Below are positions 86 through 18,220 of a stretch of DNA of 18,304 nucleotides, in pieces. The notes under the pieces are model-generated. The model did not search any database, was not told the DNA's origin, and saw only the letters and a program-made list of their open reading frames with translations. Position numbers and translations under genes: made by a program. The stretch comes from Candidatus Heimdallarchaeota archaeon. Its GTDB lineage: Archaea; Asgardarchaeota; Heimdallarchaeia; Heimdallarchaeales; Heimdallarchaeaceae. How positions within the stretch are numbered: the stretch's first letter is position 1; each line of letters opens with the position of its first letter. The stretch covers positions 1 through 18,304 of the forward strand of contig JABCTC010000058.1 in assembly GCA_018238545.1 (NCBI GenBank), in the 5' to 3' direction.

Positions 86-152
86 CATATGTGGCAACAT
101 ATGGTAATATTTATATACATACGTGTGTATTGTGACATAGATAAAAATGAAC
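86..152 (+). promoter_or_regulatory. Archaeal promoter of cassette 1 with flanking palindromes
   Basis: TTTATATA at 110-117 begins 37 nt before the ATG at 147. Inverted repeat CATATGT-GGCA-ACATATG at 86-103. Imperfect palindrome ATACATACGTGTGTAT at 115-130. TATTGTnnnATAGATAAAAATGAAC at 128-152 is shared with 1445-1469. Confidence 0.65.
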
Positions 153-386
153 AAACAAACAAAACAAACTGAATTGGAAGCAACCAAAGAAAAAAATGCT
201 GAAAAAGAACTCCCAGCAAGACATTCAAAGTTGTATAATGTTGAATGTATTGATTGTGAAGAAAAGAAAGATGAAGTTGTGTTTTATAATCCTAGAGAAA
301 AAATAGAAGCACAACTTCGAGCTGGTTATCGATGTAAAGATTGTAGCGATAACAGAAGAGCCTACTACAGAAACAGAAGAAGGTAA
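147..386 (+). CDS. Small zinc-finger protein (CxxC...CxxC), basic C-terminus
   Basis: 79 aa with CIDC and CKDC motifs and an Arg-rich tail (YYRNRRR). Lies directly downstream of a TATA box. Confidence 0.7.
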   Translation: MNKQTKQTELEATKEKNAEKELPARHSKLYNVECIDCEEKKDEVVFYNPREKIEAQLRAGYRCKDCSDNRRAYYRNRRR

Positions 387-391
387 AGAAA

Positions 392-832
392 ATGAACAAA
401 AGAACAATCACTAGAATTGTAAAAGCTCTCTTAGAAGGAAAAGGTATCTCAACAAGAGTCCAGGGTTATTTTTATGACGTTTTTTATGATGAAGACCTTG
501 ATATAGTAGAATTTAGTGGAAGAGGAGCAGCGGATGGAGTTATATCTACAGCAGATCCAAGCAATTATTCTTACGAAATGGGAGGATCTGTTTATCGTGC
601 AGCTCAAAACGCATGTTGGAATGTCGATGAAGAATTTAGAAAGCATATAGCTGCAAAGGAAAAATCTCCTGATTTTTCTGATCTAAAATACAACGGACAA
701 ATTACTCGCTATTTCGATGAAGACAAAAGTGAGTATGACATGGCATGTGCAAATAAAGAAATAAAGAAGGAAACTACTATCTATGTTCTAACTTGGACAA
801 AGGAAGGATACGAGATAGTACATAAATACTAA
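392..832 (+). CDS. Hypothetical protein
   Basis: 146-aa ORF starting 5 bp after the preceding stop, with purine-rich coding-like composition. No recognisable motif. Confidence 0.7.
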   Translation: MNKRTITRIVKALLEGKGISTRVQGYFYDVFYDEDLDIVEFSGRGAADGVISTADPSNYSYEMGGSVYRAAQNACWNVDEEFRKHIAAKEKSPDFSDLKYNGQITRYFDEDKSEYDMACANKEIKKETTIYVLTWTKEGYEIVHKY

Positions 833-881
833 AACTTTGAAAAAATTTAAAGAAGAAAACAAAAGGAGAATTGAGTAAGAA

Positions 882-1334
882 ATGAAGAAATTAACAAATA
901 AGAATCTTTTACTTAAAAGCCTGATAGTTGTGATTAGTTTAATTCTTATAAGCTCAAAAGTTTCAGCAATAGGAATAGAAGTAATATCTTTTGCGAGCTA
1001 TGTAGATGAAACAGAAGTTAAGATACAAATAGAAATAAATTTGACTTTGCCTTATACAGTTTATGAGAATGATTCAGAAATCGTAAATGGTACTTTGTTT
1101 GCATATACTCTCACAAATATAACAACAGCTAGAAATTTAACACCAGATGTAGTGATCCAACATTCGCTTTTTATTAATCGAAGTACGGAAGAATACACAG
1201 CTCATACCTGGTTGAACTTTTCATATAGTAATTATCCTGAGATACATGAATTTGGAATGATAGAATCTTTACCTTTATTCATAATTGTTTCAGGGATGGC
1301 AGCAATAATAATTATCAATAGAAGAAAGAAATAA
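882..1334 (+). CDS. Small membrane-anchored surface glycoprotein; single Ig-like domain similar to a repeat of the 1462-aa adhesin
   Basis: N-terminal signal peptide (MKK + hydrophobic + VSA). Seven N-x-S/T sequons. C-terminal PEIHEFG + TM helix + RRKK. Motif YxVY...GTLxA...TxIxTxRxLT...WxNxxYSN is shared with the adhesin region at 13628-13882. Confidence 0.8.
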   Translation: MKKLTNKNLLLKSLIVVISLILISSKVSAIGIEVISFASYVDETEVKIQIEINLTLPYTVYENDSEIVNGTLFAYTLTNITTARNLTPDVVIQHSLFINRSTEEYTAHTWLNFSYSNYPEIHEFGMIESLPLFIIVSGMAAIIIINRRKK

Positions 1335-1372
1335 TCTTTTTTCCCCTTTTCCCCTTTTTTTAGAATCGCTTA
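1332..1372 (+). repeat. 41-bp direct repeat copy 1 (stop codon plus oligo-T/C terminator-like tract)
   Basis: TAATCTTTTTTCCCCTTTTCCCCTTTTTTTAGAATCGCTTA is identical to 2142-2182 and begins exactly at the TAA stop of the upstream gene. Confidence 0.95.
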
Positions 1373-1420
1373 TTTTTCTTCAATGAAACACCAACCCTTT
1401 TAAAGTATGTTCCCGACAAC

Positions 1421-1469
1421 ACAAAGTTTATAAAGGTTTGTTCCTATTGTAGTATAGATAAAAATGAAC
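1421..1469 (+). promoter_or_regulatory. Archaeal promoter (BRE + TATA) of cassette 2
   Basis: ACAAAG followed by TTTATAAA at 1427-1434, beginning 37 nt before the ATG at 1464. 1445-1469 matches 128-152 at 22/25 positions. Confidence 0.7.
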
Positions 1470-2144
1470 GCTCAAAAAGAACTCGTGAAAAAAATGGATG
1501 TAAAACAAATAATTGAATTGCAAAGAAGTTTAAGTGAGTATAAATTTTTTGCAGAAGATCAAAACTTCTTCTTTTTCTTTGAAGAAGATTATGACCTAAT
1601 GTATTCAGTTGAAAAAGAATTAATTGAAAAAGAATACTCTCTAGAAGAATATAGAGAAGTTATTCTAGAGAAAATCAAGCTGATTGATTATAATACAGCA
1701 ATGAAAGCTAGAGCAATAGTAGAAGAACTAACAGACTTTTACACTAACACTGAAGTGAAGAATATTACAAAAGCAGCAGCACTAAAAATTAGAACTGCCA
1801 TTGCTGCTTCTTTAGGAAATAGAAGATATTTCTCACAATCAGGAAGCCATGCGATATTGAACCCATTATCCTCCCCAAAATATACCTGGTGGGGAGACAT
1901 GTACTGGGATGGCTCAGGCGAGGAGCCTCTGGTGTTTCATATTAACTTCTATAAAGAGCAGAGAAGAATACCAACGGTCTCTCAAATTCGAGAGATTGAA
2001 TACGTTCTCTATCCTAGTGGAAATTATTCTTTTAATGATCTTGCTATCTCGAACTTCAAAGATTCTGAAACTGTTCTAAAAATGATGAAAGAAGAAACCG
2101 ATATAAGAATCTTTCAAGAGATAACACAACTAGAAATGGGCTAA
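1464..2144 (+). CDS. Hypothetical protein (acidic N-terminal region)
   Basis: 226-aa ORF with its own promoter and terminator-like repeat. No recognisable family. Confidence 0.75.
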   Translation: MNAQKELVKKMDVKQIIELQRSLSEYKFFAEDQNFFFFFEEDYDLMYSVEKELIEKEYSLEEYREVILEKIKLIDYNTAMKARAIVEELTDFYTNTEVKNITKAAALKIRTAIAASLGNRRYFSQSGSHAILNPLSSPKYTWWGDMYWDGSGEEPLVFHINFYKEQRRIPTVSQIREIEYVLYPSGNYSFNDLAISNFKDSETVLKMMKEETDIRIFQEITQLEMG

Positions 2145-2182
2145 TCTTTTTTCCCCTTTTCCCCTTTTTTTAGAATCGCTTA
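2142..2182 (+). repeat. 41-bp direct repeat copy 2 (stop codon plus terminator-like tract)
   Basis: Identical to 1332-1372 and again starts at the TAA of the upstream gene. Confidence 0.95.
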
Positions 2183-2317
2183 AAACGGTTCAGTTTATGA
2201 ATAATGCTGTTTTCAGCCTTTTTTAAGAAAAAACGGAGTTCATACGCTAACGCTAAGAAGTTTTTCTCTGTTGATGAATAGTGGAGTATATGACCTTTTT
2301 TGACTTTTCATACTTAT

Positions 2318-2345
2318 CCGACTTACAATACTTTTATATACTTTA
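2318..2345 (+). promoter_or_regulatory. Putative TATA promoter of the ibrAB operon
   Basis: TTTTATATA at 2332-2340, about 41 nt upstream of the ATG at 2374. Preceded by CCGAC-N9, as in the promoter at 1413-1434. Confidence 0.55.
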
Positions 2346-2373
2346 TTTAATAATATCAGAATCAGGGAATAAA

Positions 2374-2601
2374 ATGGCTAAAAAAAGTAGAACACAATTA
2401 ATGAAGGAAGCTATTACAGAAAAAATAGCTGAATTAGAAAAGGAGGGGGTAGAATACGTTTGTGATATATCAAACGCTAAAAATCCAAAATCAGATATAT
2501 ATATAATTAAAAGAGTAGCTTATGAAGAAGAAAAAAGATTTTGGTTAACTGTAACAGGGTTATATGAGTTGCTTGTTTTGAATGTCAATCCCTTTGAGTG
2601 A
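2374..2601 (+). CDS. Small hypothetical protein, first gene of the ibrAB operon
   Basis: Start reassigned from 2281 (GTG) to the ATG at 2374 (MAKKSRTQLMKEAI...), because the upstream extension runs through the TATA box. 75 aa, ending 6 bp before ibrA. Confidence 0.65.
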   Translation: MAKKSRTQLMKEAITEKIAELEKEGVEYVCDISNAKNPKSDIYIIKRVAYEEEKRFWLTVTGLYELLVLNVNPFE

Positions 2602-2607
2602 AAAAGA

Positions 2608-3879
2608 ATGAGTACTAAACAATATCTTGAAAAAAACGTTTATGATGCAACGAAAGAAAGATTAGAAGAGATATTCAAAAATTTTCGGAAAATATACGTT
2701 TCTTTTTCAGGAGGGAAAGATTCATCAATTTTATTACAGATGGTAGTAGAGTTCGCTCAACAATACAAAAAGAAGATAGGAGCGTTATTTGTGGATTTAG
2801 AAGGACAGTATAGAGCTACAATAACTCACGTAGAAGAAATGATGCTTAATAATGAGTTTATAGAACCTTACTGGGTTGCTTTACCAATCAATCTTAGGAA
2901 TGCTGTGAGTGTTTATCAATCACAGTGGCAATGTTGGAATCCAGCAAAAAAAGATAAGTGGGTGAGAGAGATGCCAAAATATGATTGTGTAATAAACTCT
3001 GAAGATTTTTTTCCCTTTTTTGAATATGGGATGGAGTTTGAGGAGTTTGTACCAAAATTTGGTGAGTGGTATGCTCAAGGAGAGAAAACTGCTTGTTTAG
3101 TAGCTATAAGAAGTGATGAAAGCCTAAATCGTTTTAGAACTATTAAAAACGAGAGAAAAGAGAGATATAAAGATAAGGGTTATTCTACAAAAGTTAGTAC
3201 AAACGTTTACAACTTCTATCCGATTTATGATTGGAAAACAGAAGATATATGGACAGCAGTAGGTCAACAAGAGTATAAATATAACAAAATCTACGATCTG
3301 ATGTATCAACAAGGAACGTCAATTCATAAAGCAAGATTATGTCAACCCTTTGGAGATGACCAAAGACAAGGACTAGAACTCTTCAGATATATTGAACCTG
3401 AAACATGGGTTAAAATAGTTGATAGAGTTGCAGGAGTAAATTATGGTAATCTCTATGCTAACACTTATTTGATGGGAAGAATGAAAACAATACTTCCTGA
3501 AGGGCATAGCTGGAAAACTTATACAGAATTTCTTTTAGAAACTTTACCTAAATATGAAGCTGAATGGTATAAACAGAAGTTCGAGGTCTTTTTTACCTGG
3601 TGGGCTAAACATCACAACTATTTCTATTACAAATATGATGAACAACAAAAAGACTACAAATCAGAAATGAATGAATATCATAAATTAAACAAAGGTTTTC
3701 CAAAAAAAATAGTAGACAAAGCTGAGAGAAAACTAGAAAGTAAAAGAGAACTGCCTTCTTGGAGAAGATTAGCAGAAGTAATAATAAAGAACGATAAATT
3801 GTGTAAAAGACTCTCTTTTGCAGGAACAAAAAGTCAATTTGAAAAATATAACCAAATGAGGGATATATATGGATATTAA
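2608..3879 (+). CDS. ibrA: IbrA/YbdN-like PAPS-reductase-family (PP-loop) protein with DUF3440 domain
   Basis: SFSGGKDS PP-loop. Further IbrA/YbdN-type motifs: LPINLRNAVS...WQCWNP, IRSDESLNRFRTI, YPIYDWKTEDIW, RLCQPFGDDQRQGL, PSWRR...KND..CKRLSF. Adjacent ParB-like partner. Confidence 0.92.
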   Translation: MSTKQYLEKNVYDATKERLEEIFKNFRKIYVSFSGGKDSSILLQMVVEFAQQYKKKIGALFVDLEGQYRATITHVEEMMLNNEFIEPYWVALPINLRNAVSVYQSQWQCWNPAKKDKWVREMPKYDCVINSEDFFPFFEYGMEFEEFVPKFGEWYAQGEKTACLVAIRSDESLNRFRTIKNERKERYKDKGYSTKVSTNVYNFYPIYDWKTEDIWTAVGQQEYKYNKIYDLMYQQGTSIHKARLCQPFGDDQRQGLELFRYIEPETWVKIVDRVAGVNYGNLYANTYLMGRMKTILPEGHSWKTYTEFLLETLPKYEAEWYKQKFEVFFTWWAKHHNYFYYKYDEQQKDYKSEMNEYHKLNKGFPKKIVDKAERKLESKRELPSWRRLAEVIIKNDKLCKRLSFAGTKSQFEKYNQMRDIYGY

Positions 3880-4495
3880 AGAGATAAAAAAGAATATAAA
3901 GAAAGAATTAGCAAAAATTGTTACAATAACAGATCTGCAAGTAAGTGAAAAAATATTGTTATTAAATGAGTTAAGAGAAATGATACAAGAGATAAGTCCA
4001 TTTGATGAGCCTGTTGATCTCGTAAGATGGGTCCCTTCAGAACTTGTTATAGCAAATGAGTATAACCCAAATAGAGTAGCGCCTCCTGAAATGAAATTAT
4101 TGGAGGTTTCTATTGATCAAGATGGATATACTCAACCTATAGTGACATTCAAAGAAGATGGCCATTATACTGTAGTAGATGGTTTTCATAGAAACAGAGT
4201 AGGAAAAGAATGTGAAGGAATAAAAGAAAAAATACATAGCCATCTTCCGATAGTAGTTATTGACAAACCATTGACAGATCGTATGGCTGCAACAATCAGA
4301 CACAACAGAGCAAGAGGAACACATGCCGTTGCTCCAATGAGCAAAGTTATAGAAGAGCTGTATTTTCTAGGATGGTCAGATAAGAAGATATCTGAACAAC
4401 TAGGAATGGAAAAAGATGAGGTGTTGAGATTGAAACAATTCACAGGTTTAGGCAATCTTTTCAAAAACAGAGAATATTCTAAAGCTTGGGAATAA
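3869..4495 (+). CDS. ibrB: IbrB/YbdM-like ParB/Sulfiredoxin-domain protein
   Basis: Motifs ANEYNPNRVAPPEMKLL, DGYTQPIV, VVDGFHR, RMAATIRHNRARGTH, LGMEKDEVLRLKQ and terminal SKAWE. Overlaps the ibrA stop by 11 bp. Confidence 0.93.
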   Translation: MDIKEIKKNIKKELAKIVTITDLQVSEKILLLNELREMIQEISPFDEPVDLVRWVPSELVIANEYNPNRVAPPEMKLLEVSIDQDGYTQPIVTFKEDGHYTVVDGFHRNRVGKECEGIKEKIHSHLPIVVIDKPLTDRMAATIRHNRARGTHAVAPMSKVIEELYFLGWSDKKISEQLGMEKDEVLRLKQFTGLGNLFKNREYSKAWE

Positions 4496-4502
4496 TTCCT
4501 AA

Positions 4503-5192
4503 TTATTTTTCTTTATGTTTCCAATAGAGAAAGTTATCTGTTTGATCTAAATGGTCAAATTCAGGGTCAAAGAAAGTCACAAAACGAGCATATTCCCAGC
4601 CCCACATTTTAGCTTCTTGCGCATAAGTAGAAGGATAAGGAAGGAAATGAGCAACAATGTAAGCCCAAATATCCAACCATGTCCACTCTCGTAAAGGAAA
4701 GGCATTATAGACTCTTTTTTGAGAATCAAGTTCTAATAATTTAGCTGCACGTCTTTTTCTTTTTCCACTTTCTTCTTTTCGTAAACCGATTAAACACAGA
4801 TTTATAGAGTTGTTTTTTTGGTATCTTTCTAATGCAGCAAAGAAAGACCTGTACCCTGCTCCCTTTGATTCGTTTGTTGTAACCCTTTTATCAATATGTA
4901 ATTGCTTAGAAGTAAGCTTAAAGTGTTCCTTAAGAATTGTTAAAACTTCCTTTTCAATCTTTCTAGGCATGTAAACACCATAATCCCAATGCCAAACCCT
5001 TATGGAAGGAGAAATTTTCAAGCATAAATCTAACATTACAAGGGAGTCTTTTCCTCCTGAAACACTTACAGAAGGATTAGAGAAACGAGAGAAAAGCTCG
5101 CTCAATTCTAGTTTTGTTGAATGAAGTTTGTGAGCATATTCATCATTCGTTGCTGCATGAACACGAAAAAGTTCCTTTGTCTTTTCATTCAT
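4503..5192 (-). CDS. cysH: Type IV-B CRISPR-associated CysH-like PAPS-reductase-family protein
   Basis: SVSGGKDSLVML PP-loop, IGLRKEESGKR, and FPLREWTWLDIWAYI. Last gene of the csf operon. Start reassigned to 5192 (MNEKTKELF), overlapping the csf3 stop. Lacks the C-terminal ECGLH-type catalytic Cys of true reductases. Confidence 0.88.
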   Translation of the reverse strand: MNEKTKELFRVHAATNDEYAHKLHSTKLELSELFSRFSNPSVSVSGGKDSLVMLDLCLKISPSIRVWHWDYGVYMPRKIEKEVLTILKEHFKLTSKQLHIDKRVTTNESKGAGYRSFFAALERYQKNNSINLCLIGLRKEESGKRKRRAAKLLELDSQKRVYNAFPLREWTWLDIWAYIVAHFLPYPSTYAQEAKMWGWEYARFVTFFDPEFDHLDQTDNFLYWKHKEK

Positions 5193-5964
5193 TTGAAACA
5201 ACCTCAGTAAAGGGAGGAACACAATAAGTATGATTCTGTTTTTCCCAATAAGGAGGACGATAAGAAAGAAAAGCATACTCGGAAGGAAGGAGATTCAGGT
5301 GTTGGAGAACATAATTAGCTGGAAGGGGCTTAGTTGTTTTACTGTTTTTGATAAAAGAATAGTCCTCATCAACTGAAATAATAGAATAGTCTTGAATTCT
5401 TCCATAACCATAAGAACTTTTTTTACCTAAATAGAAGAGCTCAGATAGAAGGGAAGACAATTGTTTCTTATCTCCTTTAGCAAAAAAAGTTACTTCAGGA
5501 GAATAGTTTCCTGCAAACTTAATAGCAAAAGAACGATATATTCCTCCATCTACTCTAATCTTTCTCTTCTTTGTTTGTAAATTCTCTGTAAATCTGTCAT
5601 CAAATCGCTTATAGACTGTTTCACTTGTTATAGCATTTTCATCCGAAACTATTGAAACAGAGGCACGATAAAAAAAGACTTGTTGATCATCAACAACAAA
5701 GTGTTCTTTTTCTAAAGGTACAGGAAGATAAGCATTGAAAGGTATAGGTTGTCTTGTAGGTAGTAGAGAATAATATTCTTGAAAGATTTCTTGAGCCATC
5801 AAATGAGAAATGATTCCATCAAAATGTATCCATGGATAAGTGAGGAGCATAGGAGAGGAAAGAGAAAAAGTTATCTGTAAAGGTTCAAAAAGCCATTTAG
5901 GACTTGTTTCTGAAAACTTTCGCACTTTTTCTCTTAATATTTCTTCTAAAGTCATTTCAATCAT
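5185..5964 (-). CDS. csf3: Type IV CRISPR-associated Csf3 (Cas5 family RAMP)
   Basis: PLQITFSLSSP...HFDGIISH, YRASV, VTFFAKGD, Gly-rich loop LGKKSSYGYGRI, and C-terminal RPPYW. Follows csf2. The start could be 5976, 5964 or 5955. Confidence 0.88.
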   Translation of the reverse strand: MIEMTLEEILREKVRKFSETSPKWLFEPLQITFSLSSPMLLTYPWIHFDGIISHLMAQEIFQEYYSLLPTRQPIPFNAYLPVPLEKEHFVVDDQQVFFYRASVSIVSDENAITSETVYKRFDDRFTENLQTKKRKIRVDGGIYRSFAIKFAGNYSPEVTFFAKGDKKQLSSLLSELFYLGKKSSYGYGRIQDYSIISVDEDYSFIKNSKTTKPLPANYVLQHLNLLPSEYAFLSYRPPYWEKQNHTYCVPPFTEVVSNE

Positions 5965-6796
5965 ACCATGAACCAAGTTTTTCCAAGAGGTTTACAATTT
6001 CCGAGGAATGTTCTTCAATAAATTTCAAATATAGTTTGTTAGGAATAGTTTTATCATAATCTATAGAAAGATGACCAAAACCTGAACTACTTTTCCCTCC
6101 AATATAAGGAAGGTTTTTCCACAGATCTATTAGATGGCCTAAAAAGGAATATTCAAGATCTGTTCCTTTCACTAATACAAAACCATGAAAGAATTTTGTT
6201 CCAGGAATAAATATTTCTATATCTACTTTCATCTGTACAGTGGGGTCATTCTCACTTTTTTCTAATCCGCTGACACCCGCTTCTTCTTTGCGAGTAAAGA
6301 AACTATGATCCAGAAAACTATAAATCTCGTGAGTACAATACTTTTGAAATTCAGAAGGTACGAGTGCTTTTGTTTCAGAGCATAAAGGCAATAACTCATT
6401 AACTTTAAGTTTCCCTGGAAGAACTTGGTTACCATAGCTCATTCCATAAACAGAGATGGGGATTAGAACTTCTTGAATCTTTTTCCTCATCTCTAAATCT
6501 AATTGTCCAGCATTCTTTTTTACAGATTCGAGAACACCTCCAGAAAAAAGAGCATGATACAAACTAGTGTTTTTTAGCGTATAATCTACTCTTTGAAGGA
6601 TATCTTGCATGGCCAATCTTCTTAAGTAACCTCTCACAGCATTTCCACTGACAAAAGGTAGTTCCATCGGTCTACCATCTACGAAAAATTTCTGTCTTCT
6701 TAATAACTGACTTGCACCAGTTTTTTCATTTCCTCCATGATGGATAGGACTCAAAGCTGTTATAATTCCGTTGATTTTTCTAGTTTGTAATTTCAT
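5957..6796 (-). CDS. csf2: Type IV CRISPR-associated Csf2 (Cas7 family backbone)
   Basis: ITALSPIHHGG, LPFVSGNAVRGYLRR, LFSGGVL, NQVLPGKLKV, EIFIPGTKF, and Gly-rich loop IGGKSSSGFG. Confidence 0.93.
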   Translation of the reverse strand: MKLQTRKINGIITALSPIHHGGNEKTGASQLLRRQKFFVDGRPMELPFVSGNAVRGYLRRLAMQDILQRVDYTLKNTSLYHALFSGGVLESVKKNAGQLDLEMRKKIQEVLIPISVYGMSYGNQVLPGKLKVNELLPLCSETKALVPSEFQKYCTHEIYSFLDHSFFTRKEEAGVSGLEKSENDPTVQMKVDIEIFIPGTKFFHGFVLVKGTDLEYSFLGHLIDLWKNLPYIGGKSSSGFGHLSIDYDKTIPNKLYLKFIEEHSSEIVNLLEKLGSWYD

Positions 6797-7242
6797 GATA
6801 ATTTACCTTCTTTGTAAGCTTGATTAAGTAGTTGTGAAAGCTCTATTGCTTTTCTTGAGATGTAAATAGCGTTCTCATCTCTAATTGTTGCAAAAGCTCG
6901 TTTTTTATCTAATTCCAGAGCATCAATAACTGAAGAATGCAAGGAAACATTTTGTAAACTTAATAAATTACAGAGTTTTCCAACAAATTTAGGTATGCTA
7001 TCCTGAACTCCTGCAACCTTGAGTTTATGTTGAAAAACATCTTCTGAGCGAATCTTTGGCGATTTAGCTATTTTTCGCCAATCAGCTCTTAGATAGATTT
7101 TTGCTAAAACATAACTCATATACTTGTATGTTTCAATTCTTTCTCCTTCATCTAAAGGAAAAACTATTTCTTGTTGTTCGACCCAGTGGTCCAATAAAAT
7201 CAGTTCTTTTTTTAATCGTTCATACTCATTTTCATTTAACAA
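6793..7242 (-). CDS. cas11: Type IV-B small subunit (Cas11-like)
   Basis: 149-aa helical-looking protein between csf1 and csf2, the position of the IV-B small subunit. TTG start with GGTGA 6 nt upstream. ATGA overlap with csf2. The call is mainly positional. Confidence 0.7.
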   Translation of the reverse strand: MLNENEYERLKKELILLDHWVEQQEIVFPLDEGERIETYKYMSYVLAKIYLRADWRKIAKSPKIRSEDVFQHKLKVAGVQDSIPKFVGKLCNLLSLQNVSLHSSVIDALELDKKRAFATIRDENAIYISRKAIELSQLLNQAYKEGKLS

Positions 7243-7864
7243 AATTTATCACCCATTTCCAAATTAAATTTTTTCTAACAGATTTTAAAAAAGAAAGATC
7301 TGTTCTAATATCTGTAAGTTTATAGAGATTTTTTGAATTGACTATACTGCTTAATAACTCCTGTTTTGATATTCCCAAAAGTCTAAATTGTTCGGCTTTT
7401 GTAATATGTTCTTTAAGCTGCTTAGAAGTCAAGGAAAGTAGCTGCATATCATAAGCTAAAGTAAATCTATTCAAGGAGTAGTTGAGAGTGTTTAATAGAT
7501 TTAACCAACCTTGTTTTTTATAAGTTGAAGTTGTATAAATTACAAAAGGTAAATCAGCTACTTTTAATGATTGTAGCGCAGGTAAAACGTCTGATTTATG
7601 TAGAAAAGAAAAACTGTTAGTAGTGAGTAGCCAGTTTCTTTTGCGGTAGTCTTGTGTTTCGTAAAGATGCTTACAAGCAGGACAGATTAAACCCGTATCA
7701 TGCAGATAATCTGCACGAGTAAAAGTTTTCTTTAACTGAAGAGTATAAAGATCTGTTCCTTTAATACCACAAAAAGCGCAACATCCTTCAAGCGTACCAT
7801 GAATTAGGGGAATTTTACGAGTAGAGACAAGTAATTGAGAAAGGGAAGTAAAGTTTTTTATCAT
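7232..7864 (-). CDS. csf1: Type IV CRISPR-associated Csf1 (Cas8-like large subunit, Zn-finger)
   Basis: CAFCG...KTFTRADYL...ICPAC zinc finger and PFVIYTTSTYKKQGW motif. First gene of the csf operon. Confidence 0.82.
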   Translation of the reverse strand: MIKNFTSLSQLLVSTRKIPLIHGTLEGCCAFCGIKGTDLYTLQLKKTFTRADYLHDTGLICPACKHLYETQDYRKRNWLLTTNSFSFLHKSDVLPALQSLKVADLPFVIYTTSTYKKQGWLNLLNTLNYSLNRFTLAYDMQLLSLTSKQLKEHITKAEQFRLLGISKQELLSSIVNSKNLYKLTDIRTDLSFLKSVRKNLIWKWVINFVK

Positions 7865-7910
7865 TTTTCTACATCCTATTTTTTATTTTTGTACATTTAA
7901 ATTTTTCTTG
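7865..7910 (-). promoter_or_regulatory. Archaeal promoter (BRE + TATA) of the type IV-B operon
   Basis: Minus strand CAAGAAAAA-TTTAAATG. The TATA box starts at 7901, 37 nt before the csf1 ATG at 7864, the same spacing as the promoters at 110 and 1427. Confidence 0.65.
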
Positions 7911-8027
7911 TTTATCTTACCCCTACTTCTTTTATGTTCTTTCGGTAAGAACGGAGAATAATCAACGGAGAGCGATTTTATCCGAAAAGGCTATAATGTT
8001 TATCATGTAGTACGTAAAGAAAGTATC

Positions 8028-8162
8028 TCAGCGTTTGAATATACCCTTAATTTTTCTTCTGAATCTGCCCTTTTTCTCGTTTTTGTCTATTTCATCATAA
8101 ATCCAGTAAATACCAGCTAGCTTTAAGATTGCTCTTTCGTCTTCAGTAATCATTGGAAACAT
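8028..8162 (-). CDS. Small basic hypothetical protein (44 aa, not in ORF track)
   Basis: MFPMITEDERAILKLAGIYWIYDEIDKNEKKGRFRRKIKGIFKR, with upstream GAGGA. Overlaps the preceding small ORF and fills the gap at the operon end. Confidence 0.5.
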   Translation of the reverse strand: MFPMITEDERAILKLAGIYWIYDEIDKNEKKGRFRRKIKGIFKR

Positions 8163-8256
8163 CTTCTTTTTCCTCTGCCATCTCTTTCATTAAGCGTTCG
8201 TGCATAGCATATTTTTCTTTTTGAGTTAGTTTGTTATAATTAGGGTCAGCTTTCAT
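8143..8256 (-). CDS. Small charged hypothetical protein (37 aa; 44 aa from TTG at 8277; not in ORF track)
   Basis: MKADPNYNKLTQKEKYAMHERLMKEMAEEKEDVSNDY, co-oriented directly after the ATPase gene. Confidence 0.45.
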   Translation of the reverse strand: MKADPNYNKLTQKEKYAMHERLMKEMAEEKEDVSNDY

Positions 8257-8309
8257 TTTTTCTAATGCAGGAATCAAATACCGTTTCCCTTTAACCTCTT
8301 TCTTAGGCT

Positions 8310-9722
8310 TTATGACCCCGACTTCCTGCTCTTTGTTTTAGCCTTAGATCCCTTAACTTTTTTAGTTGCTGCTTGTTCTTTTTCCAAGACTTTTTGGTCT
8401 GTTGGGGTGGGGGAAGAGGGCTCATAAAGTGTCTGGGGAGTCTGGGTAATCTGGTACGTTTTGAAAACAGCTTCATTAGAACGTATAACACAATAACAGA
8501 GCTCACAGTGAAAACCTTCTTTTAATAGCTTAAACATCTCACCTGAAAGCATTTTAGACGTTGGTGATTCTCTCTGTTTTCTCATTTTGACTTCAATAGC
8601 TTTACTTTTATCTGGAGAAAGAAGATCTATTCTTCCAGTACCAGCTATTCTTTTGTAACCAGCATAATACTCTCCTGGTTGAGTTAATTGATATTCTATT
8701 AAGTGACCAATAATTTCTGTTCTAATAATAGCCAACCAACCTGAATTGTTATAATTGTTTGTGATTGATGAATCGGATACTTTAAACTTGTCTGCAATTT
8801 CACTAGCACTATCCTTTTTTAAATACCTGATAAATGCTTCAGTGTGTTTATGTTTAAGTTTCTTGGTTTCAAGATTAATTTTCTTTTTGATAAATTTCCA
8901 ATTATACAAGGATCGGATAATCATCTCATTACCACTAAATTCTCTTAATTCAAGGAAGTTATAATCTCCATCAGTTGTCTCGAAAATATTAACAGGTTCA
9001 GCTTCAGCTTCTATCTCAGTAATGATTGAATCATCAGAAGATATAAAATCATAAGTAATGAAGCCTGTATCTCCACAGATTGTACTAGCAACACATTCCG
9101 AAAGAGCTTCATAGTTGTGCTTCTTGAAAACTTGATCACTGATATCATCTAATTTCTTTATAGCAACGAGGCCAATCTTTTTAGCCAATTTGTTTTTATC
9201 GTGATCATTAGTTGGAGCATTTTTGTAAATGTCAACATGAACGGTTGAACGAAGTTTCTTAGTAATAAGATAGATATCCTGAACTGCAAAGAAAACAACA
9301 ATAACACCATTTTTCTTCCCAATATCTTTTCTTTTCTCTTCAAAAATATGTCTTATCCTAGTAAATTTTGAGATTAGTTTTTTAGCAGCATCTTGATTTT
9401 CTAACCCTGCATCATCAACAAATAGTACTTGAACAGGTTTAGAGTCTATATTAGCCATTAAAACATCTAAAGATTCGTGTATGATGAGATTAACATTCTT
9501 TAGATCAGAAAAATATTTTAACCAAGCGAAGAATCCCATAGATCTATAGAGGCTAGTCTTGCCTGTCCCCATGATTCCATATACTTGACTTGAACGAAAT
9601 TGTATGTTGTCTCCCTTAGGTATAGGAGGGAAAAGGATAGAAATAACATCTTTAGTGATATCCTGTAATTCTACTTGAATGATTGATTGTTCAATCTCAG
9701 GAGAATAGTCTAAGCCGTACAT
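8310..9722 (-). CDS. Zot/pI-like (FtsK-HerA-related) morphogenesis ATPase fused to HTH and PD-(D/E)XK nuclease-like domains
   Basis: Walker A GIMGTGKT, Walker B VLFVDDAG, RIRH, and FFAVQDIYLITKKLR (Q sensor/Arg-finger pattern). HTH SASEIADKFKVSDSSIT. Nuclease-like GHLIE...RIDLL...AIEVK. Start reassigned to 9722 (MYGLDY; GAGGG RBS, short overlap with the upstream stop). Confidence 0.75.
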   Translation of the reverse strand: MYGLDYSPEIEQSIIQVELQDITKDVISILFPPIPKGDNIQFRSSQVYGIMGTGKTSLYRSMGFFAWLKYFSDLKNVNLIIHESLDVLMANIDSKPVQVLFVDDAGLENQDAAKKLISKFTRIRHIFEEKRKDIGKKNGVIVVFFAVQDIYLITKKLRSTVHVDIYKNAPTNDHDKNKLAKKIGLVAIKKLDDISDQVFKKHNYEALSECVASTICGDTGFITYDFISSDDSIITEIEAEAEPVNIFETTDGDYNFLELREFSGNEMIIRSLYNWKFIKKKINLETKKLKHKHTEAFIRYLKKDSASEIADKFKVSDSSITNNYNNSGWLAIIRTEIIGHLIEYQLTQPGEYYAGYKRIAGTGRIDLLSPDKSKAIEVKMRKQRESPTSKMLSGEMFKLLKEGFHCELCYCVIRSNEAVFKTYQITQTPQTLYEPSSPTPTDQKVLEKEQAATKKVKGSKAKTKSRKSGS

Positions 9723-10381
9723 TTTGTTTCCCTCTTTTGATCTTCCTTTAGTTTTTGCTGAGTTTTTTTGTAAAAATGCCAAGTGATAAGATTGATTTGA
9801 TAAGCTGTTCTTACTTGCCACATGAAAATAGGACTAGCTCTTTCAGCTTTGCCAGGTAGCCAAATAGAAGTGTCAGGATTAAGGACTTTGATTTTGTTTC
9901 CTTCTTCATCAACTTTATTCGTGTAATGTTTGTATTTATCTCTGTTTTCGAAAATATCATCAGCTCGTTGAACAGCAGCAAGAGAGCGAATATTCACAGC
10001 ATCAGGCTTGATAAAAATAGCAACAGGGCGCTTAAATTTTGGTGAAGATTCTATTTTATGTGCAGCAACAGCTAGAAGTCTTAGGCCATGAATATCTTTT
10101 CTTTGAATGTTTGCCCAATACTGTAAGCCCTGCAAACCATATTTAATCACAATAATTTTAGACCAGTAATTATAATGAAAACAACAATGACCAACAGGCT
10201 GACCGTCTACTTTTCCTAGATTGTCATCAGAGAACCATTTTCTTTCTAACCAGTTTTGCCAGTCAAATAATAATCCTTGGCATTTGTAGAAAGTGTTTCC
10301 ACCCACCAGTGCAGAAAGTTTGAAATCACTATAAACCAAAGGTTCAAGGATCTCTAAAAATTCATCACGAGCCTTGCTCAT
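9710..10381 (-). CDS. Hypothetical soluble protein
   Basis: 223-aa ORF coupled by ATGA overlap to the upstream gene. No recognised motif. Confidence 0.75.
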   Translation of the reverse strand: MSKARDEFLEILEPLVYSDFKLSALVGGNTFYKCQGLLFDWQNWLERKWFSDDNLGKVDGQPVGHCCFHYNYWSKIIVIKYGLQGLQYWANIQRKDIHGLRLLAVAAHKIESSPKFKRPVAIFIKPDAVNIRSLAAVQRADDIFENRDKYKHYTNKVDEEGNKIKVLNPDTSIWLPGKAERASPIFMWQVRTAYQINLITWHFYKKTQQKLKEDQKRETKCTA

Positions 10382-11382
10382 TTCTCATCACTTTTTTGTT
10401 TCTTTTGATCCTCGCTTAATGTTAATAGATCCTTTTGGCTAGCAGTACTATCCTCACGTTCTTTGTATAAACCTTCATAGAACTTTTGAGTGTCAAAATA
10501 ACTATCAGTGAAATTAGGACATCTTTCGTTAGCAAATTCTAATAAAACATCATCTCCTACATTATCGATGTGAGTCTGTAATTTGATGACTTTCTTACGT
10601 GAAAGATGTGCCCGACTAACAGCTTTGAAAACTATTTTCTCATTAATTGTTTTTTCAACTTGTGTTTTCCCTCGATTAACCTCGTCTAATTCGTCTAAAT
10701 CACTTTGAGGTATTAAACAACCAGCATTAAGCATCAAATCCTTTGTCTCTTTATCTCTAAGGAAGATTCTACCAAGACGATAGTGAGTAGGCAAAAGAGG
10801 AAGAACACGGGTTCGGATATCTTTTCCTCTTACACGTTTGTAAGTATGTGTTCGAGCATTTTGCAAGATATAATCCCAGGTAACACCATCAATGTAAACC
10901 TTTGCAGAACCATAAATTAATTGTCCAAAATTTGATTTTCTTCTAACTTTTAAAGCATTGCCTGAAGTGGTTTGAATAAATTCATACTCTTTGTGACCAT
11001 CATTTGTTTTATCATATAACTCTACAATATCTTTAGGCATGAAATAATCAAGTATAATTAATCCTGCAACTAGTACACAGAAAACAGAAAGAATGATTAT
11101 CCAGGTATAAGAAATGAAACCAATAATGAAGGAACCAAAGCCACCAAAAAAAGCAATTAAAGCTTGTTGTAGATCTCGAGTATTAGCTAGAATAATAAAG
11201 AAAATAACTGCAGTTATACTTATGGTCCATAAGATTACTTTCTTTTTGTTAGCTCCAAACCAATCTAACCACCAGGGCATAGCTGAAGTGATGTTTTCTC
11301 GGATATGAATTTTTATACCATCTTCGTTCATCCCTTCTATTTCTTCATTAGTTAAAGCAAGATTTCTAAATGTGTTTTTCAT
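10378..11382 (-). CDS. Membrane protein with N-terminal TM helices and large soluble C-terminal domain
   Basis: 334 aa with 2-3 hydrophobic segments at about residues 49-113. ATGA overlaps on both sides. Confidence 0.8.
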   Translation of the reverse strand: MKNTFRNLALTNEEIEGMNEDGIKIHIRENITSAMPWWLDWFGANKKKVILWTISITAVIFFIILANTRDLQQALIAFFGGFGSFIIGFISYTWIIILSVFCVLVAGLIILDYFMPKDIVELYDKTNDGHKEYEFIQTTSGNALKVRRKSNFGQLIYGSAKVYIDGVTWDYILQNARTHTYKRVRGKDIRTRVLPLLPTHYRLGRIFLRDKETKDLMLNAGCLIPQSDLDELDEVNRGKTQVEKTINEKIVFKAVSRAHLSRKKVIKLQTHIDNVGDDVLLEFANERCPNFTDSYFDTQKFYEGLYKEREDSTASQKDLLTLSEDQKKQKSDEK

Positions 11383-11996
11383 TGTTCATCACTTCTCTGA
11401 TATTTCTTACGAGCTATTAACCAGATCAATAGACCTCCACCTATAGCTCCTAAAATTATTTGAGCAATAGCCCAGTAAAGTTTGTTAAGTGCTTTCCGAT
11501 GATCTTCTATACTGACATAGTCATCTTCTTCCCAAGGAGGAATATAGTATGATTCTTCAGAATAAAAGTATTCTAAGTAGATCTTTGCATAAGTGATATC
11601 TCCTGGTTCATTAGTGACTGAAACTATACAATATATTTCTCCTTTTGAATCGGGATTAGGAGAGACAATCACTTTTCTTGTTTTAGAGAATAAACCAAGC
11701 TCGTTAGTTGTATCTACATAAGATTCTATTTCAGAATCAAATATTTTTAATCTAAAGGTAATATTGTCAAAGCTATTCGCAGTAACAATCATCTCAGCAA
11801 TGCTAACGCCTGAACCGTTGAAAAAACCAACAGTAGTAATAGAAAGAACACCACGTTGATTGAAGAACACGGATTGATAGTCAAACACCCCTCCATCGCC
11901 ATAATCAAGAGGAACCTCAAGTATTATAGCAGAAGTGAGAGAGGACACACAAATAACAGTTAATAAAACAACAATTATACTAGATTTCTTTTTCAT
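11379..11996 (-). CDS. Type I membrane protein (signal peptide, beta-rich ectodomain, C-terminal anchor); putative virion envelope protein
   Basis: MKKK + hydrophobic signal, and C-terminal TM AIAQIILGAIGGGLLIWLIA followed by RKK. Coupled to the adhesin gene. Confidence 0.8.
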   Translation of the reverse strand: MKKKSSIIVVLLTVICVSSLTSAIILEVPLDYGDGGVFDYQSVFFNQRGVLSITTVGFFNGSGVSIAEMIVTANSFDNITFRLKIFDSEIESYVDTTNELGLFSKTRKVIVSPNPDSKGEIYCIVSVTNEPGDITYAKIYLEYFYSEESYYIPPWEEDDYVSIEDHRKALNKLYWAIAQIILGAIGGGLLIWLIARKKYQRSDEQ

Positions 11997-14900
11997 TTTT
12001 GTTTACCTCGTTTATAGCCTACTAAACGATCATATTTACTCGACCAAAGCAACTGTAAGAAGGTTTCAGCAAAGAGACTGGGTTTCTTTCCCTCTCGAAT
12101 TGTTTTCTCAAGCTTCTTCACAATAGCATTGCCGATAGCATTGTAACTAATTAGTAGAACTATCAAGAGAAGAACCAGAGCGATATAGAACCAATATTGA
12201 ACAAAGAAATCTACAACTTTATCCCACCAAGTTTTTTCTCCATCGTCATCATCATCAGTTACTAAAGGAATGGTAATAGAGAAAGGAACTCTTTCAGGAG
12301 GAGGTTCAACATTTGGATCATGTAACCAATACCAAAGAGTAACACCATCAGATACGCTTTCTACTTTTTTGTAAATACGACATTCGTAAGTGGAATCAAT
12401 AACCCAGTAACTCTTTGATTCATATTGGCCGAGAATCATTGTTATGAGATCATCTGCATCAGTATCCCAATCAAGACCAGAAAGATAAGGTCGAATCTTT
12501 ATCATTCTGTCATCATTATCTAAATTGATAACATAGAGTTTTTCGAGAGGTAGTTCAATAGTCATACTCTGAATAATTCCGATGTCAATCGATACATTGT
12601 AAATGAGATTATCAAAGAGATCTCTCACAACAAGTCGGTGATTTCTAGCTGAATTATGAATCCATAGTCGATTATTGAGTATGTAGCTGTAATTACTATG
12701 TTCTTGGATTACGCTTGTATAATTGAGAGTATCAACTAAAACACCATTAAGATAAGTTAGAACAGAATCAACATCTATCTCAGGAACAGCTATGCCATAA
12801 ATTTTTTCAGTATAACGAATTTGACAATCATAGAAAAGAACAGTCTCATACCAAAAGAGAGGATAAGTAACAGTTTCGTTATATTCCGCAACAGGATATC
12901 CATCACTATTTGTTGTGCAGTTGTAGATTAAGATTAGAGAAACATTATGCCAACCTATTAAGGTGTCTTTAGCAATGCTGAAAGCTGTTAAAGTGGAATC
13001 ATCAACAATTAAAACAGAATCGTGATAAATATCTATCCAGAAATGGTCTAAATTAGTAATGAAAGAGATATTGAAGAACCCCTCGCTTTGCTCTCGATAA
13101 ATATCTGTATTAGGTTCAGGAGGAGGAATAAGGTTGCTGTACCAAGTCATAAAAAGAACTGTTTCAGCTCCATAAACGAATGCTACGGTGAGGTTGAAAA
13201 TTCCTGCTGTTGTTTCCTTGGGAATTATGATAAAAGTGCCTACACTTAGACCGTTACCACTACCAGAAGGAGTTCCGTTAGTGTAGGTTTCATAAGAGTA
13301 ATCGTAATTGCTTGTACAGTAGATACTCAGATAATCGTCAGAAGGATAAACATTCTCAACATCTACTTGAAATTCTTCTATTGCTGCAACAGTGTAAGTG
13401 AAGGAGTAAATAATGTCATCAAAATTTGTTACAGAGAAAATTAAGGTTACATAGTGCGTTCCTACTTCTGTGCTTTTAGTCCAAGAAGTAGTACTTGTCG
13501 GATCATCAGTTACTTTCTCAACATCATCTTCTATAGCTGTAAGACTATCAATGGTGTTTTTACTCGTATCCCAGGTAATGATAATGTTAGGAGCTGTGGT
13601 GTTAATTCGATAATCAGTAATAAAGAAATCTTGAGAAGGATTACTGTAAGTAGTATTAAACCAGATTGTAGAAGTGTCATTTACAAACTTTATAGCATAA
13701 TTAATTGTAACTCCAACAGTTAAATCTCTAGATGTTGAAATCGTTGTGCCAATAGCTGAAAGAGTACCAGAACCATCAGGAGTATTGTCTTTATAAACAT
13801 AATACTGACCATTGTAATTACTTGTTACATAAGTGCTAACATATAGATCCGAAAGATAGAAATTCTCGACAGAAACGCTGAAAGCAGTAGCTTCAACAGT
13901 GTAAAGATATTCATAAGTAGAACTGAGATAAGCTGTTTCTTCACCTGCACTGAAAAGAACATAAGTGAGATTATGAGAACCGACAGTATTATTCTTCAAA
14001 ATTGTTTGTAGATCGGAATAAACACCTAGGTAATTAGAATCAAGATAGATCTCGTATTGATTTGTATTGTTTGTGCTAGAAAGATAGAAAGAAGTATCAG
14101 TTTCAATCAATGTTGGAGTTTCTGAAAAAGTTGAGGGAGTGAAATAAAACTTTGAATAAAAACCACCACTCACAAGCTTAATAGATTTATAATATTCGTC
14201 TTCATCAGCTCCTGGAACTGTTTCATCTTCTCGCTCTGTTCTAATTCTGAATCCTTCTGTTTGTGATCCTGACCAATCACCAGTAGACCAAGTCATTAAA
14301 CTCAAATGTATTTGTAAATAAATATATTCTCCGTTCCCATAACAATAATTAGACGCATCTATAACCCCACTACTTAAAATATTAGGTGTACCATCAGCTC
14401 CATCATCTATGACAAATATTTCGTGTTCATCTCCAGTCGTTGCGGTTTTGAATGAAAATATTATCGTAGTGTAAATATCAGCATCAATGGTTATAGAACC
14501 ACCATTATCAATACCTTGTATTCCCATCCACCACCAATCGTAAGAACCCGAAACATTTTGAAATAGAACTCCTTCTCCTTCATCAGTTGTTTGACTTAAC
14601 GAGGAACGAGCATCAGAAGTTGGAACAAAACCGTCTAAATCTTCTTCAAAATCCCACCTATCATTTAATACTGTTTCAGCATAATCCCCGAACCAATTAT
14701 CATAAGTAAAAACTCTTACCTCGTATTCCTTTTGCTCGAAAGCATAAGGATGAATAACTGTTCCATGTCCAAATTCATCTGTTGTTACAGAATAAGAATG
14801 TTCTAGAGTTTGAGCAGTTCGATCCCAGAGCTCTACTTGATAATCTCTAAAAGAATCTTGAGTAAATTTATAACCATCTGCTACAACTCCATCAAAATCT

Positions 14901-16381: not shown

Positions 16382-16385
16382 TTTT

Positions 16386-16796
16386 TCACCTTATTTTAAT
16401 TTTGACCTGAACACACTTGGAAGACCTATAAAGGCTGAAATAACAAAATATCCCCCTAGCACAGGAATTAACATGTATTGTTACTATTAAGTCAGAAGCT
16501 GATGTTGCAGAAACCCAGTAGATAACAAAAACAATTATGGAAACAATACCTGCTAGCATAATAGCTAAAGTTCTATTGAATTTTGAGACAAAAGATAAAG
16601 CTAAAACTGGTAGAGAATACAACATTCCGAGTAATAAAATAACTTCGCCCCAATTGACTATAGCTAATTTTTCAATTATAATATCATAGCGACCAATAGT
16701 GATAACAGCAATGCCGATAATGCCGATACAATACAAAAACGAATAGAAATAGACGTTTTTACCAACAGTTTTAGCTCCTGAAGTGATTCTACCCAT
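16386..16796 (-). CDS. Multi-pass membrane protein
   Basis: Start reassigned to 16796 (MGRITSG; GAGGGG RBS, 8-bp overlap with the upstream gene). 136 aa with three or more TM segments. Confidence 0.75.
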   Translation of the reverse strand: MGRITSGAKTVGKNVYFYSFLYCIGIIGIAVITIGRYDIIIEKLAIVNWGEVILLLGMLYSLPVLALSFVSKFNRTLAIMLAGIVSIIVFVIYWVSATSASDLIVTIHVNSCARGIFCYFSLYRSSKCVQVKIKIR

Positions 16797-17022
16797 TTTT
16801 CTTATCCCCTCTTTTAGCTCCAAACTTCCAACCTTTCTTAGCAAGAAAGATGAGCAAGATAACGAAAGAAGCATAAATAACTCCCATGAGAAGATTACCT
16901 GCAGCAACCGAAAAAACAATTAGAAGAACAGGATAAAGAATACCTACAACAACAGCAGAGCTTATACCTATTTTTTTCTTCTTGGACCAATCAGACATTC
17001 CACGTAAATTCACTTTAACCAT
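16789..17022 (-). CDS. Small two-TM protein with basic termini; candidate virion structural protein
   Basis: 77 aa hydrophobic hairpin flanked by KKKK and KKGWK...KRGDKK. Confidence 0.75.
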   Translation of the reverse strand: MVKVNLRGMSDWSKKKKIGISSAVVVGILYPVLLIVFSVAAGNLLMGVIYASFVILLIFLAKKGWKFGAKRGDKKNG

Positions 17023-17024
17023 AA

Positions 17025-17690
17025 TTAAGCACCATCACCAGGACTTCCTCCTCGTTCAGGCCATTCAAACCATTCGAGATAGAGAAATTCAGTACTCCAA
17101 CTAGGAGCTGATAACATCATAACATCTTCCCAAAACATTACAGAAGGAACTTTAATCGTTCTAATTAAATTACTGTTAATTTTTTCAACAATATCTACAA
17201 ACCAATCTTTTGATAAGATAACAATATCGCCAGGCCATGAAGTTATACTTCCACCTATGCCGAGATTGTAGGCACATATAGAGACAGCATTATCAGCTAT
17301 CTCCCTACTTTCATTAACTATAAATAAATTGAAAACAAGACACAATAAATTGAAAAATAAATCACCGCCTTCCATAACCCCTTCTACAAGAAGGAAAAGC
17401 AATAAACCGAAAAACGATTTAAATAAATCAATAATAAAACCAAATCCAAAACCAGAAGAAAAAGGATCGGGTATAGAAGCAATCATTAAACTTAATGGAT
17501 AAATAAGCAGAGCTGAAACAATAAGTTTCAATATTCCTACAATAAAAGAAAGAGCCCAAAAAACAATCTGAATAATGCCCCAAATAAAAATACTATTATT
17601 ATGAAAAGCAAACACTTGCAAAAAATCTAATAAAACGAGAAAAATAACGGGGAATGCAAATCCCCAAAAAATCTTTTGTCCGAAAGCCAT
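17025..17690 (-). CDS. Multi-pass membrane protein
   Basis: 221 aa, very hydrophobic (about 4-5 TM segments), tightly packed in the operon. Confidence 0.78.
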   Translation of the reverse strand: MAFGQKIFWGFAFPVIFLVLLDFLQVFAFHNNSIFIWGIIQIVFWALSFIVGILKLIVSALLIYPLSLMIASIPDPFSSGFGFGFIIDLFKSFFGLLLFLLVEGVMEGGDLFFNLLCLVFNLFIVNESREIADNAVSICAYNLGIGGSITSWPGDIVILSKDWFVDIVEKINSNLIRTIKVPSVMFWEDVMMLSAPSWSTEFLYLEWFEWPERGGSPGDGA

Positions 17691-17694
17691 TTTT

Positions 17695-18006: not shown

Positions 18007-18185
18007 CTAGGTCGCACCTTCCTGAATATCAAATAGCCTATCAAACCGACTACAACCACGCCCCAAATTGTTGCTGTAAGCCAGAAACCTACCCACTGTC
18101 CTAGAAAGTTACTTAAAACAAATAGAACAATGAATATGATTAAAGCTACTACAAACAAAGTGCGGTTTTCTTTTATTTTTGCCAT
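18003..18185 (-). CDS. Small two-TM protein
   Basis: 60 aa with two TM helices and basic ends. AGGTGA RBS 6 nt upstream. Confidence 0.78.
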   Translation of the reverse strand: MAKIKENRTLFVVALIIFIVLFVLSNFLGQWVGFWLTATIWGVVVVGLIGYLIFRKVRPR

Positions 18186-18220
18186 TTTCTTTCACCTTAT
18201 CCTATAGAAAAAGAAAACAG

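Follow-up and report, generated by a model that had tools for sequence, protein, structure and literature searches.

A sequon-rich, stand-alone copy of a spike stalk domain in a virus-like contig of a Heimdallarchaeon: a candidate surface glycoprotein that may act in superinfection exclusion

Near one end of a virus-like contig from a Heimdallarchaeon lies a gene for a small protein, P0001, whose single domain resembles a repeat of the 1462-aa spike encoded elsewhere on the same contig. This raises the question of what a separately encoded piece of spike would be for. The original prediction proposed that it is displayed on the host surface to mask the receptor or trap incoming spikes or, alternatively, that it is a domain donor for spike diversification. 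The window analyzed here spans all 18,304 nt of contig C67, one of the 128 contigs of a 3.63-Mb MAG. It carries no terminal repeat indicating circularity, and its 3′ end (18186–18304) falls within the C-terminus of an orthologue of a 411-aa signal-peptide/TM protein encoded at 8841–10076 of L030, a contig of a close relative (G026:C150). Since the contig is cut inside a gene, it is not a complete genome. L030 also carries an extra 60-aa membrane gene that C67 does not have. On the minus strand, positions 8310–18185 encode small hydrophobic proteins, the spike, three further genes, and a TM-less ATPase; on the plus strand, positions 147–4495 hold small genes and an IbrA/IbrB-like pair. P0001 is the product of the last gene in a three-gene unit (147–386, 392–832, and 882–1334), behind genes for a zinc-ribbon protein and a 146-aa orphan. 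The unit has the following elements:

110–146, plus strand: TATA-type putative promoter of the three-gene unit, TTTATATA at 110–117 (from repeat D1 and sequence)
882–1334, plus strand: gene of the small surface protein P0001, 150 aa (ORF and translation)
1332–1372, plus strand: 41-nt T-rich (T/C) putative terminator overlapping the P0001 stop (from repeat D2)

Repeat D1 has a 71%-identical copy at 1427–1482, and repeat D2 has an exact second copy at 2142–2182, after the next gene. Public contigs break at both D2 copies, and read depth in run X1 is ∼118 at 2142–2182 compared to ∼28 nearby. The excess depth and the contig breaks imply that D2 is multicopy in the population; further copies were not found in the host MAG. 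The P0001 gene lies ∼12.3 kb from the spike gene on the opposite strand, as measured on the 3′-cut contig, which agrees with its original placement in an accessory cassette more than 12 kb away on the other strand. By its layout, we read the gene as part of an accessory transcription unit that is separate from the morphogenesis operon. That operon encodes another small type-I membrane protein (205 aa, 11379–11996), which is without the EF motif found in the tail of P0001.

The surroundings of the unit hold several further cassettes. An array-less type IV-B cas set occupies 4503–7864 on the minus strand (csf1-like, a cas11-sized ORF, csf2, csf3, and cysH-like, by ncbifam models), tail to tail with a DUF3440/PAPS-reductase and ParB_N pair at 2608–4495 on the plus strand. 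A contig from run X9 joins position 2152 to 7932 via 32 other letters, which points to a relative without the whole IbrAB and type IV-B cas island (2153–7931). The left border of this island is the second D2 copy. On the upstream side, positions 1–2535 of contig C15 from the host MAG (G000) end at the equivalent of window position 143 (89% identity over 143 nt), and its minus strand contains a 251-aa ORF, antirepressor/Bro-N-like as judged by eye, as well as two small RHH-like ORFs. C15 is probably the upstream neighbor in a variant of the virus-like element. Lastly, G000 contigs C128 (4736–7391, minus strand) and C17 (172–2315, plus strand) carry tandem arrays of five and four proteins, respectively, of 135–195 aa, each with a signal peptide, C-terminal helix, and basic tail; C128 also encodes a distant spike homologue. 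These arrays may be further virus-borne surface-protein cassettes.

The translation of P0001 divides into three parts:

882–968, plus strand: predicted Sec signal peptide, aa 1–29 (read from sequence; kept across the family)
972–1235, plus strand: single Ig-like β-sandwich domain, aa 31–118 (AF2 pLDDT >90; spike-domain HMM E 2.4e-10)
1236–1331, plus strand: C-terminal tripartite signal (motif conservation; host-tail HMM)

The predicted signal peptide, which the first reading had also recognized, consists of a basic n-region, a hydrophobic core, and V-S-A preceding the predicted cut, and aa 5–24 form a helix in the AF2 model. The C-terminal signal consists of P-E-I-H-E-F (1236–1253), a hydrophobic helix (∼1266–1316), and N-R-R-K-K. 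Word-indexed and exhaustive searches yielded seven homologues (P0003–P0009), all from short metagenomic contigs of 961–3786 nt, so that the family comprises eight stand-alone proteins of 144–169 aa that are 46–69% identical. All share the signal peptide, the domain, and the sequons; the tail motif is present in seven of the eight, with P0009 lacking it. A search of 1.84 billion protein representatives returned only this family and the repeat proteins P0010–P0012. We rejected the latter as spurious, as they comprise a translated low-complexity repeat along with bacterial adhesins with cadherin/VCBS-like repeats that match over many weak stretches. Neither Pfam nor PHROGs gave a significant match for P0001 or the spike, and related-locus searches of viral, genome, and metagenome contigs with the P0001-family alignment gave no match. 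Only sub-threshold archaeal "hypothetical" clusters came from the ESM Atlas, a few of which have C-terminal sorting domains; they serve as no more than a lead. With a signal peptide and an anchor of its own, together with conserved sequons, P0001 is in our reading a real gene that is under selection as a protein.

To place the domain on the spike, we refer to the following features:

11993–16381, minus strand: 1462-aa spike/adhesin, a type-I membrane protein (ORF; A-B-A-B stalk of Ig/FN3-like beads)
13634–13909, minus strand: spike B-domain copy 1 (B1), aa 825–916 (the copy matching P0001 pairwise)
13127–13402, minus strand: spike B-domain copy 2, aa 994–1085 (HMM E 5.1e-36 within the spike family)

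The similarity between the P0001 ectodomain and a spike repeat had originally been seen by eye at 13628–13882. BLASTP recovered it, aligning P0001 22–117 with spike 826–914 (30 identities in 97 positions, 31%, E 3e-6; window 13634–13909, minus strand). Such an alignment could in principle be chance or compositional, or the ORF might be no gene at all: P0001 is T/N/S-rich, and HMMER also gave the clearly spurious P0010–P0012. However, the Smith–Waterman score of the P0001 ectodomain against the whole spike (90) was attained in none of 1000 composition-preserving shuffles (mean 43.6, sd 5.9, maximum 71; z = 7.9). We then used an HMM built only from 61 B copies of 25 spikes, with the small proteins left out, and this matched all eight members of the P0001 family with E values from 1.7e-13 to 6.6e-8 (2.4e-10 for P0001) across positions 2–91 of 93. 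Likewise, hhalign of the P0001-family alignment against the spike domains gave a probability of 97% and an E value of 1.2e-10. Given the shuffles, these two significant profile comparisons across the whole domain, the seven homologues of equal architecture, and a confident structural model, we reject the chance reading as barely conceivable. Copy 2 of the spike (994–1085) was not significant against P0001 in pairwise comparison and belongs to the same domain family via the HMM. In the joint alignment, the predicted signal-peptide cut of P0001 coincides with the start of the domain's first strand, and a W-x-N-x-[ST]-Y-S-N ending common to both proteins closes the domain.

Structural models are consistent with this assignment. 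The AF2 model of P0001 (mean pLDDT 85, domain >90) shows a seven-strand sandwich at 34–116 between N- and C-terminal helices, with strands at 34–41, 45–52, 56–62, 65–72, 78–83, 91–101, and 106–116. The model of spike aa 741–1090 (pLDDT 79.5) shows four Ig/FN3-like beads in the order A-B-A-B, in which the B1 strands fall at 96–103, 107–114, 118–124, 127–134, 139–144, 152–161, and 164–173. The two sets of seven strands match in order, length, and spacing, with the offset steady at 61–62 until a five-residue insert of the P0001 family. Both models also align to identical PDB chain ranges, for example, 5jip_B 229/231–320 and 2vtf_A 527/529–617. The best structural match of the four-bead model is fibronectin FN3 domains 4–7 (Z 12.2, rmsd 9.8 Å, 295 aligned residues). 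Foldseek and VIA searches with both models returned only generic Ig/FN3/GH2-type sandwiches (Z 7.5–9) and no specific functional relative. The profile comparisons thus show that the P0001 domain and the spike B domain are homologous, and the models, judged strand by strand, that P0001 and B1 have the same seven-strand fold.

Across spikes, the B domain occurs in 1 to 5 copies per protein, giving the 61 distinct copies in 25 spikes. One spike homologue was found in an NCBI MAG named Candidatus Heimdallarchaeaceae, which, like the heimdallarchaeosortase gene described below, fits a Heimdall-group host. Related-locus searches of viral and metagenome contigs with the spike or its alignment gave no match. 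The homologue P0032, on a 96.6-kb contig, has five B copies, four of which stand as two back-to-back pairs without an A bead. Another homologue, P0031, has NHL/β-propeller Pfam domains, which suggests head swapping.

The homology left two histories for the small gene: an old duplicate that has gone its own way or, as the second proposal had it, a silent domain donor whose cassette recombines into the spike to diversify it. The spike is indeed strongly variable between strains, and its B copy number ranges from 1 to 5, as might be expected if a donor were at work. In a tree of 69 domain sequences, however, the eight small proteins group as a single clade (SH-aLRT 100), set off by a branch of ∼1.1 changes per site, outside all 61 spike copies and with no spike copy nested within. 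The small proteins are only ∼18–33% identical to any spike copy. P0001 is 31–33% identical to its own spike and to those of related elements alike, and blastn of the P0001 gene against the spike gave no collinear DNA similarity. The long-branched separate clade and the missing DNA similarity imply an old duplication with no sequence exchange since, and we therefore reject the donor reading as highly improbable; that P0001 has a signal peptide and an anchor of its own, besides its conserved sequons, also speaks against it. In our judgment, P0001 very probably descends from an old stand-alone duplication of one spike B bead.

What P0001 would have gained since that split can be read from the family. 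Its ectodomain contains seven N-x-S/T sequons where 1.6 are expected (0 of 2000 shuffles attain seven), compared to two in B1 and a mean of 2.2 in the spike copies, as the original count of seven against two had it. Every family member has 6–9 sequons against 1.2–2.6 expected, a count attained by a fraction of at most 0.004 of 2000 shuffles. In alignment A1, which holds six sequences, six sequon positions are invariant columns. Comparison with the spike therefore points to a secretion signal, about five conserved sequons, and a host-like tail as gains made after the split.

The tail had originally been likened, as an EF-TM-RRKK arrangement, to archaeal sorting signals. These elements are present, and they also resemble EF-type tails of the host. 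Within the six sequences of A1, P119, I121, E123, and F124 are invariant and the helix behind them varies freely, the pattern expected of a recognition motif. The family motif, P-x-[IV]-x-E-F, precedes a membrane helix of variable sequence and then the basic tail. The spike, in contrast, continues after its membrane helix into a long tail. Among host ORFs, P-x(1-3)-E-[FY] straight before a C-terminal helix and basic tail was found in 12 of 226 anchored candidates against ∼1.5 expected (13 ORFs when the window contig C67 is included). An HMM of 22 host EF-type tails, from which the viral tail was left out, gave the viral tail 25.8 bits and placed it second among the non-seed members of a set of 3,410 tails, a test that is partly circular since the viral tail also fits the seed pattern. 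As a side observation, at least two C-terminal motif classes, EF-type and P-T-[DE]-type, are visible among the host's ∼128 anchored secreted ORFs.

We also compared the tail with curated models. The PEF-CTERM model TIGR03024 gave no P0001 match at E ≤1, and C67 was not among the five weak hits of the genome. With regard to the PEF-CTERM layout, P0001 has the helix and RRKK, and its E-F is conserved with the P four residues ahead of it. The Heimdall-CTERM model NF045529 scored the P0001 tail at 13.4 and 16.8 bits (cut-off 24). None of the genome's ORFs attains this value, and the viral tail ranks fourth of 38 weak hits. The curated Loki-CTERM model also placed the tail under its cut-off. The PEF-, Loki-, and Heimdall-CTERM models all fall short, so that sortase processing is at most putative; the tail may instead be an ordinary type-I anchor. 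On its motif and layout, we nonetheless judge it to resemble archaeal sorting signals, specifically the EF-type tails of anchored host proteins.

The host encodes two candidate enzymes. One is a heimdallarchaeosortase (NF045528) at G000:C68:29648–30250, with 260 bits against a cut-off of 130. The other, at G000:C43:12012–12752, is a divergent member of the exosortase/archaeosortase family (TIGR04178, 33 bits against a cut-off of 23) and adjoins a GT4 glycosyltransferase. It is nearest to ArtC, the enzyme specific for PEF-CTERM proteins (PMC9723798), and its ArtC score is 26 bits (cut-off 100). Known archaeosortase substrates, as in the PEF-CTERM/ArtC, PGF-CTERM/ArtA, and Heimdall-CTERM/heimdallarchaeosortase systems (Haft et al. 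2012 as cited in PMC9723798), are secreted, as P0001 is predicted to be, and like it are sequon-rich, with a motif, helix, and basic cluster at the C-terminus, and the host of P0001 likewise has enzymes and many similarly tailed proteins. P0001 differs from PEF/PGF-CTERM proteins in that its motif, P-x-I-x-E-F, is not contiguous, it scores under the cut-off of the curated models, and it is virus-encoded.

Upon analysis of 81 other genomes of the class, we found a spike homologue in nine and a P0001 homologue in none, so the co-occurrence of the pair that had been envisaged for relatives does not hold. None of the small ORFs in 14 related loci and contigs apart from P0001 matches a spike. As P0001 is missing from related genomes that hold the spike, its function, whatever it is, would be dispensable. 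No P0001 homologue was found among host genes either; the only matches to its domain in the host MAG are spikes on the virus-like contigs C2 and C97. In this genome, then, P0001 does not look like a generic host surface module, the case that had been named as counting against the original proposal. The P0001 region is 99–100% identical across contigs of four public cold-seep/marine-sediment metagenome studies, and the spike region varies strongly. For instance, in run X2, 9–1361 is 99% identical and a 13-kb contig is ∼97.5% identical over 7910–13154, and the N-terminal two-thirds of the spike (13154–16289, aa ∼30–1075, including B1) are unalignable at 85% or replaced. The spike is hypervariable between strains. 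None of the public RNA runs is listed as holding the P0001 region.

With considerable confidence, then, we describe P0001 from its sequence as a virus-specific accessory surface glycoprotein derived from an old duplicate of the spike B bead. What it does is a separate matter. The protein would be exported by Sec, have its signal peptide cleaved, and be N-glycosylated at up to seven sites. Its tail would be recognized, like those of the host's EF-type surface proteins, by one of the two host archaeosortase-family enzymes. The outcome would be a glycan-covered 10-kDa domain tethered near the infected cell's membrane; should the virus bud, P0001 may also reach the envelope. There, P0001 could remodel or cloak the infected-cell surface such that virions of the same or a rival virus adsorb or enter less well, either as a lysogenic-conversion-type superinfection exclusion or by keeping chronically released virus from re-adsorbing. 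P0001 would do so as a steric or glycan shield, or by touching the stalk of the spike, and not through mimicry of the receptor-binding head. The original idea of receptor masking by spike mimicry is unlikely because the copied part is a stalk bead of variable copy number and not the variable N-terminal head.

The secretion signal, dense sequons, host-type anchor, and accessory position fit an infected-cell surface protein, and we tentatively favor a role in cloaking or superinfection exclusion, of which the latter is plausible. One point weighs against a role that involves specific binding or exclusion: with seven glycans per 88-residue domain, little bare surface would be left for protein contact. 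The full proposal, in which a host archaeosortase anchors a glycan-cloaked copy of the spike stalk that blocks superinfecting virions or re-adsorption of the virus itself, is doubtful as a whole.

The main rival to cloaking or exclusion is that P0001 is a minor structural glycoprotein of the virion, an envelope protein or spike-base partner that docks beside the homologous beads and is incorporated during budding. It has a domain in common with the spike, it is anchored near the bilayer as the spike base is, and the adjoining morphogenesis operon already has a small type-I membrane protein at 11379–11996. In addition, among the many generic matches of both models is the Ig-like domain of the SSV19 spindle-virus tail protein (7xdi_E), which aligns with the P0001 model at Z 7.7 and rmsd 2.3 Å over 77 residues and with the spike model at Z 8.6 and rmsd 2.8 Å over 81. 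On the other hand, P0001 lies on the opposite strand and belongs to a separate unit whose other genes are small and look non-structural, every related locus that has retained the spike and its surrounding genes lacks it, and the host-like EF tail is found only on P0001 and not on the spike or the 205-aa protein. We regard a virion role as possible but rather unlikely.

Surface display could also serve another end, such as adhesion or aggregation of infected cells, helping or blocking an unrelated co-resident virus, or a shed glycan decoy. The architecture supports display for these ends equally well, and the pilins of SNJ2 can serve other viruses and host biofilm formation and not the virus that encodes them. 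Since nothing specific points this way, and P0001 has one small domain only and no adhesin-like head, we hold these ends to be improbable, if well within reason. Cloaking or exclusion remains the reading that we favor.

Several known systems bear on cloaking or exclusion. Llp of T5, Cor of phi80 and N15, and Ltp of Streptococcus TP-J34 are reportedly prophage superinfection-exclusion surface lipoproteins (for Cor, see also PMC13673623). Like P0001, they are small, have a signal peptide and a predicted lipid or membrane tether at the surface, and belong to a non-structural, dispensable module. As lipobox lipoproteins of bacteria, however, they block a defined receptor or the entry of DNA, and they are not known to be paralogues of the phage receptor-binding protein, whereas P0001 has an archaeal C-terminal signal, is hyper-sequoned and spike-stalk derived, and is known from sequence alone. 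Receptor interference is attributed to viral envelope proteins at the cell surface or to truncated versions of them, among which are retroviral Env-derived factors such as Fv4. It also occurs when gD, an envelope protein of HSV, is present on the cell surface (PMC4810564). Both gD and Fv4 resemble P0001 in placing a copy of the virus's own attachment protein on the infected cell. Receptor interference, however, uses the receptor-binding part, and P0001 copies only the repeated stalk bead, which makes competitive receptor binding unlikely.

Within the archaea, the virus-encoded type IV pilins of SNJ2 (Pleolipoviridae) hijack host surface machinery (PMC12426801). By analogy, they are the nearest archaeal precedent for a virus protein of this kind: an accessory gene of an archaeal virus that uses host surface machinery, alters the cell surface, and is not needed for the virus to complete its cycle. 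They differ from P0001 in fold, in their class III signal peptide, and in outcome, as the pili become the receptor for another virus. The element itself resembles the wyrdviruses by gene order alone, with comparable size and a similar succession of small hydrophobic proteins, giant adhesin, conserved block, and TM-less ATPase (10.1101/2021.07.29.453957). A His1-like major capsid protein and a pI-like ATPase would mark a wyrdvirus at sequence level, but Pfam and PHROGs gave no match for the small hydrophobic proteins or the ATPase of the element. The wyrdviruses of that study are Loki- and Thor-associated, with no stand-alone spike-domain protein described, whereas the host here is of the Heimdall group. 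Wyrdviruses are thought to be released without lysis, and a change of surface glycans to avoid superinfection has been raised by the authors (10.1101/2021.07.29.453957). A review from 2024 that covers how archaeal viruses enter and exit their hosts never uses the word superinfection.

Almost nothing is known of how archaeal viruses handle superinfection, and even less for viruses of Asgard archaea. The Asgard archaea are the closest relatives of eukaryotes. P0001 offers a concrete, small, and testable candidate whose ancestry in the spike stalk and later gains can be read from its sequence. If it were only a minor envelope protein, this would be an ordinary domain duplication. If a host archaeosortase processes the tail, the virus would be borrowing that pathway, and P0001 would be a compact reporter substrate for the uncharacterized sortases and N-glycosylation machinery of Asgard archaea. 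Should archaeosortase-anchored exclusion prove true, archaea would have in P0001 their first described case of an exclusion factor derived from a spike, and of a virus-encoded substrate of an archaeosortase.
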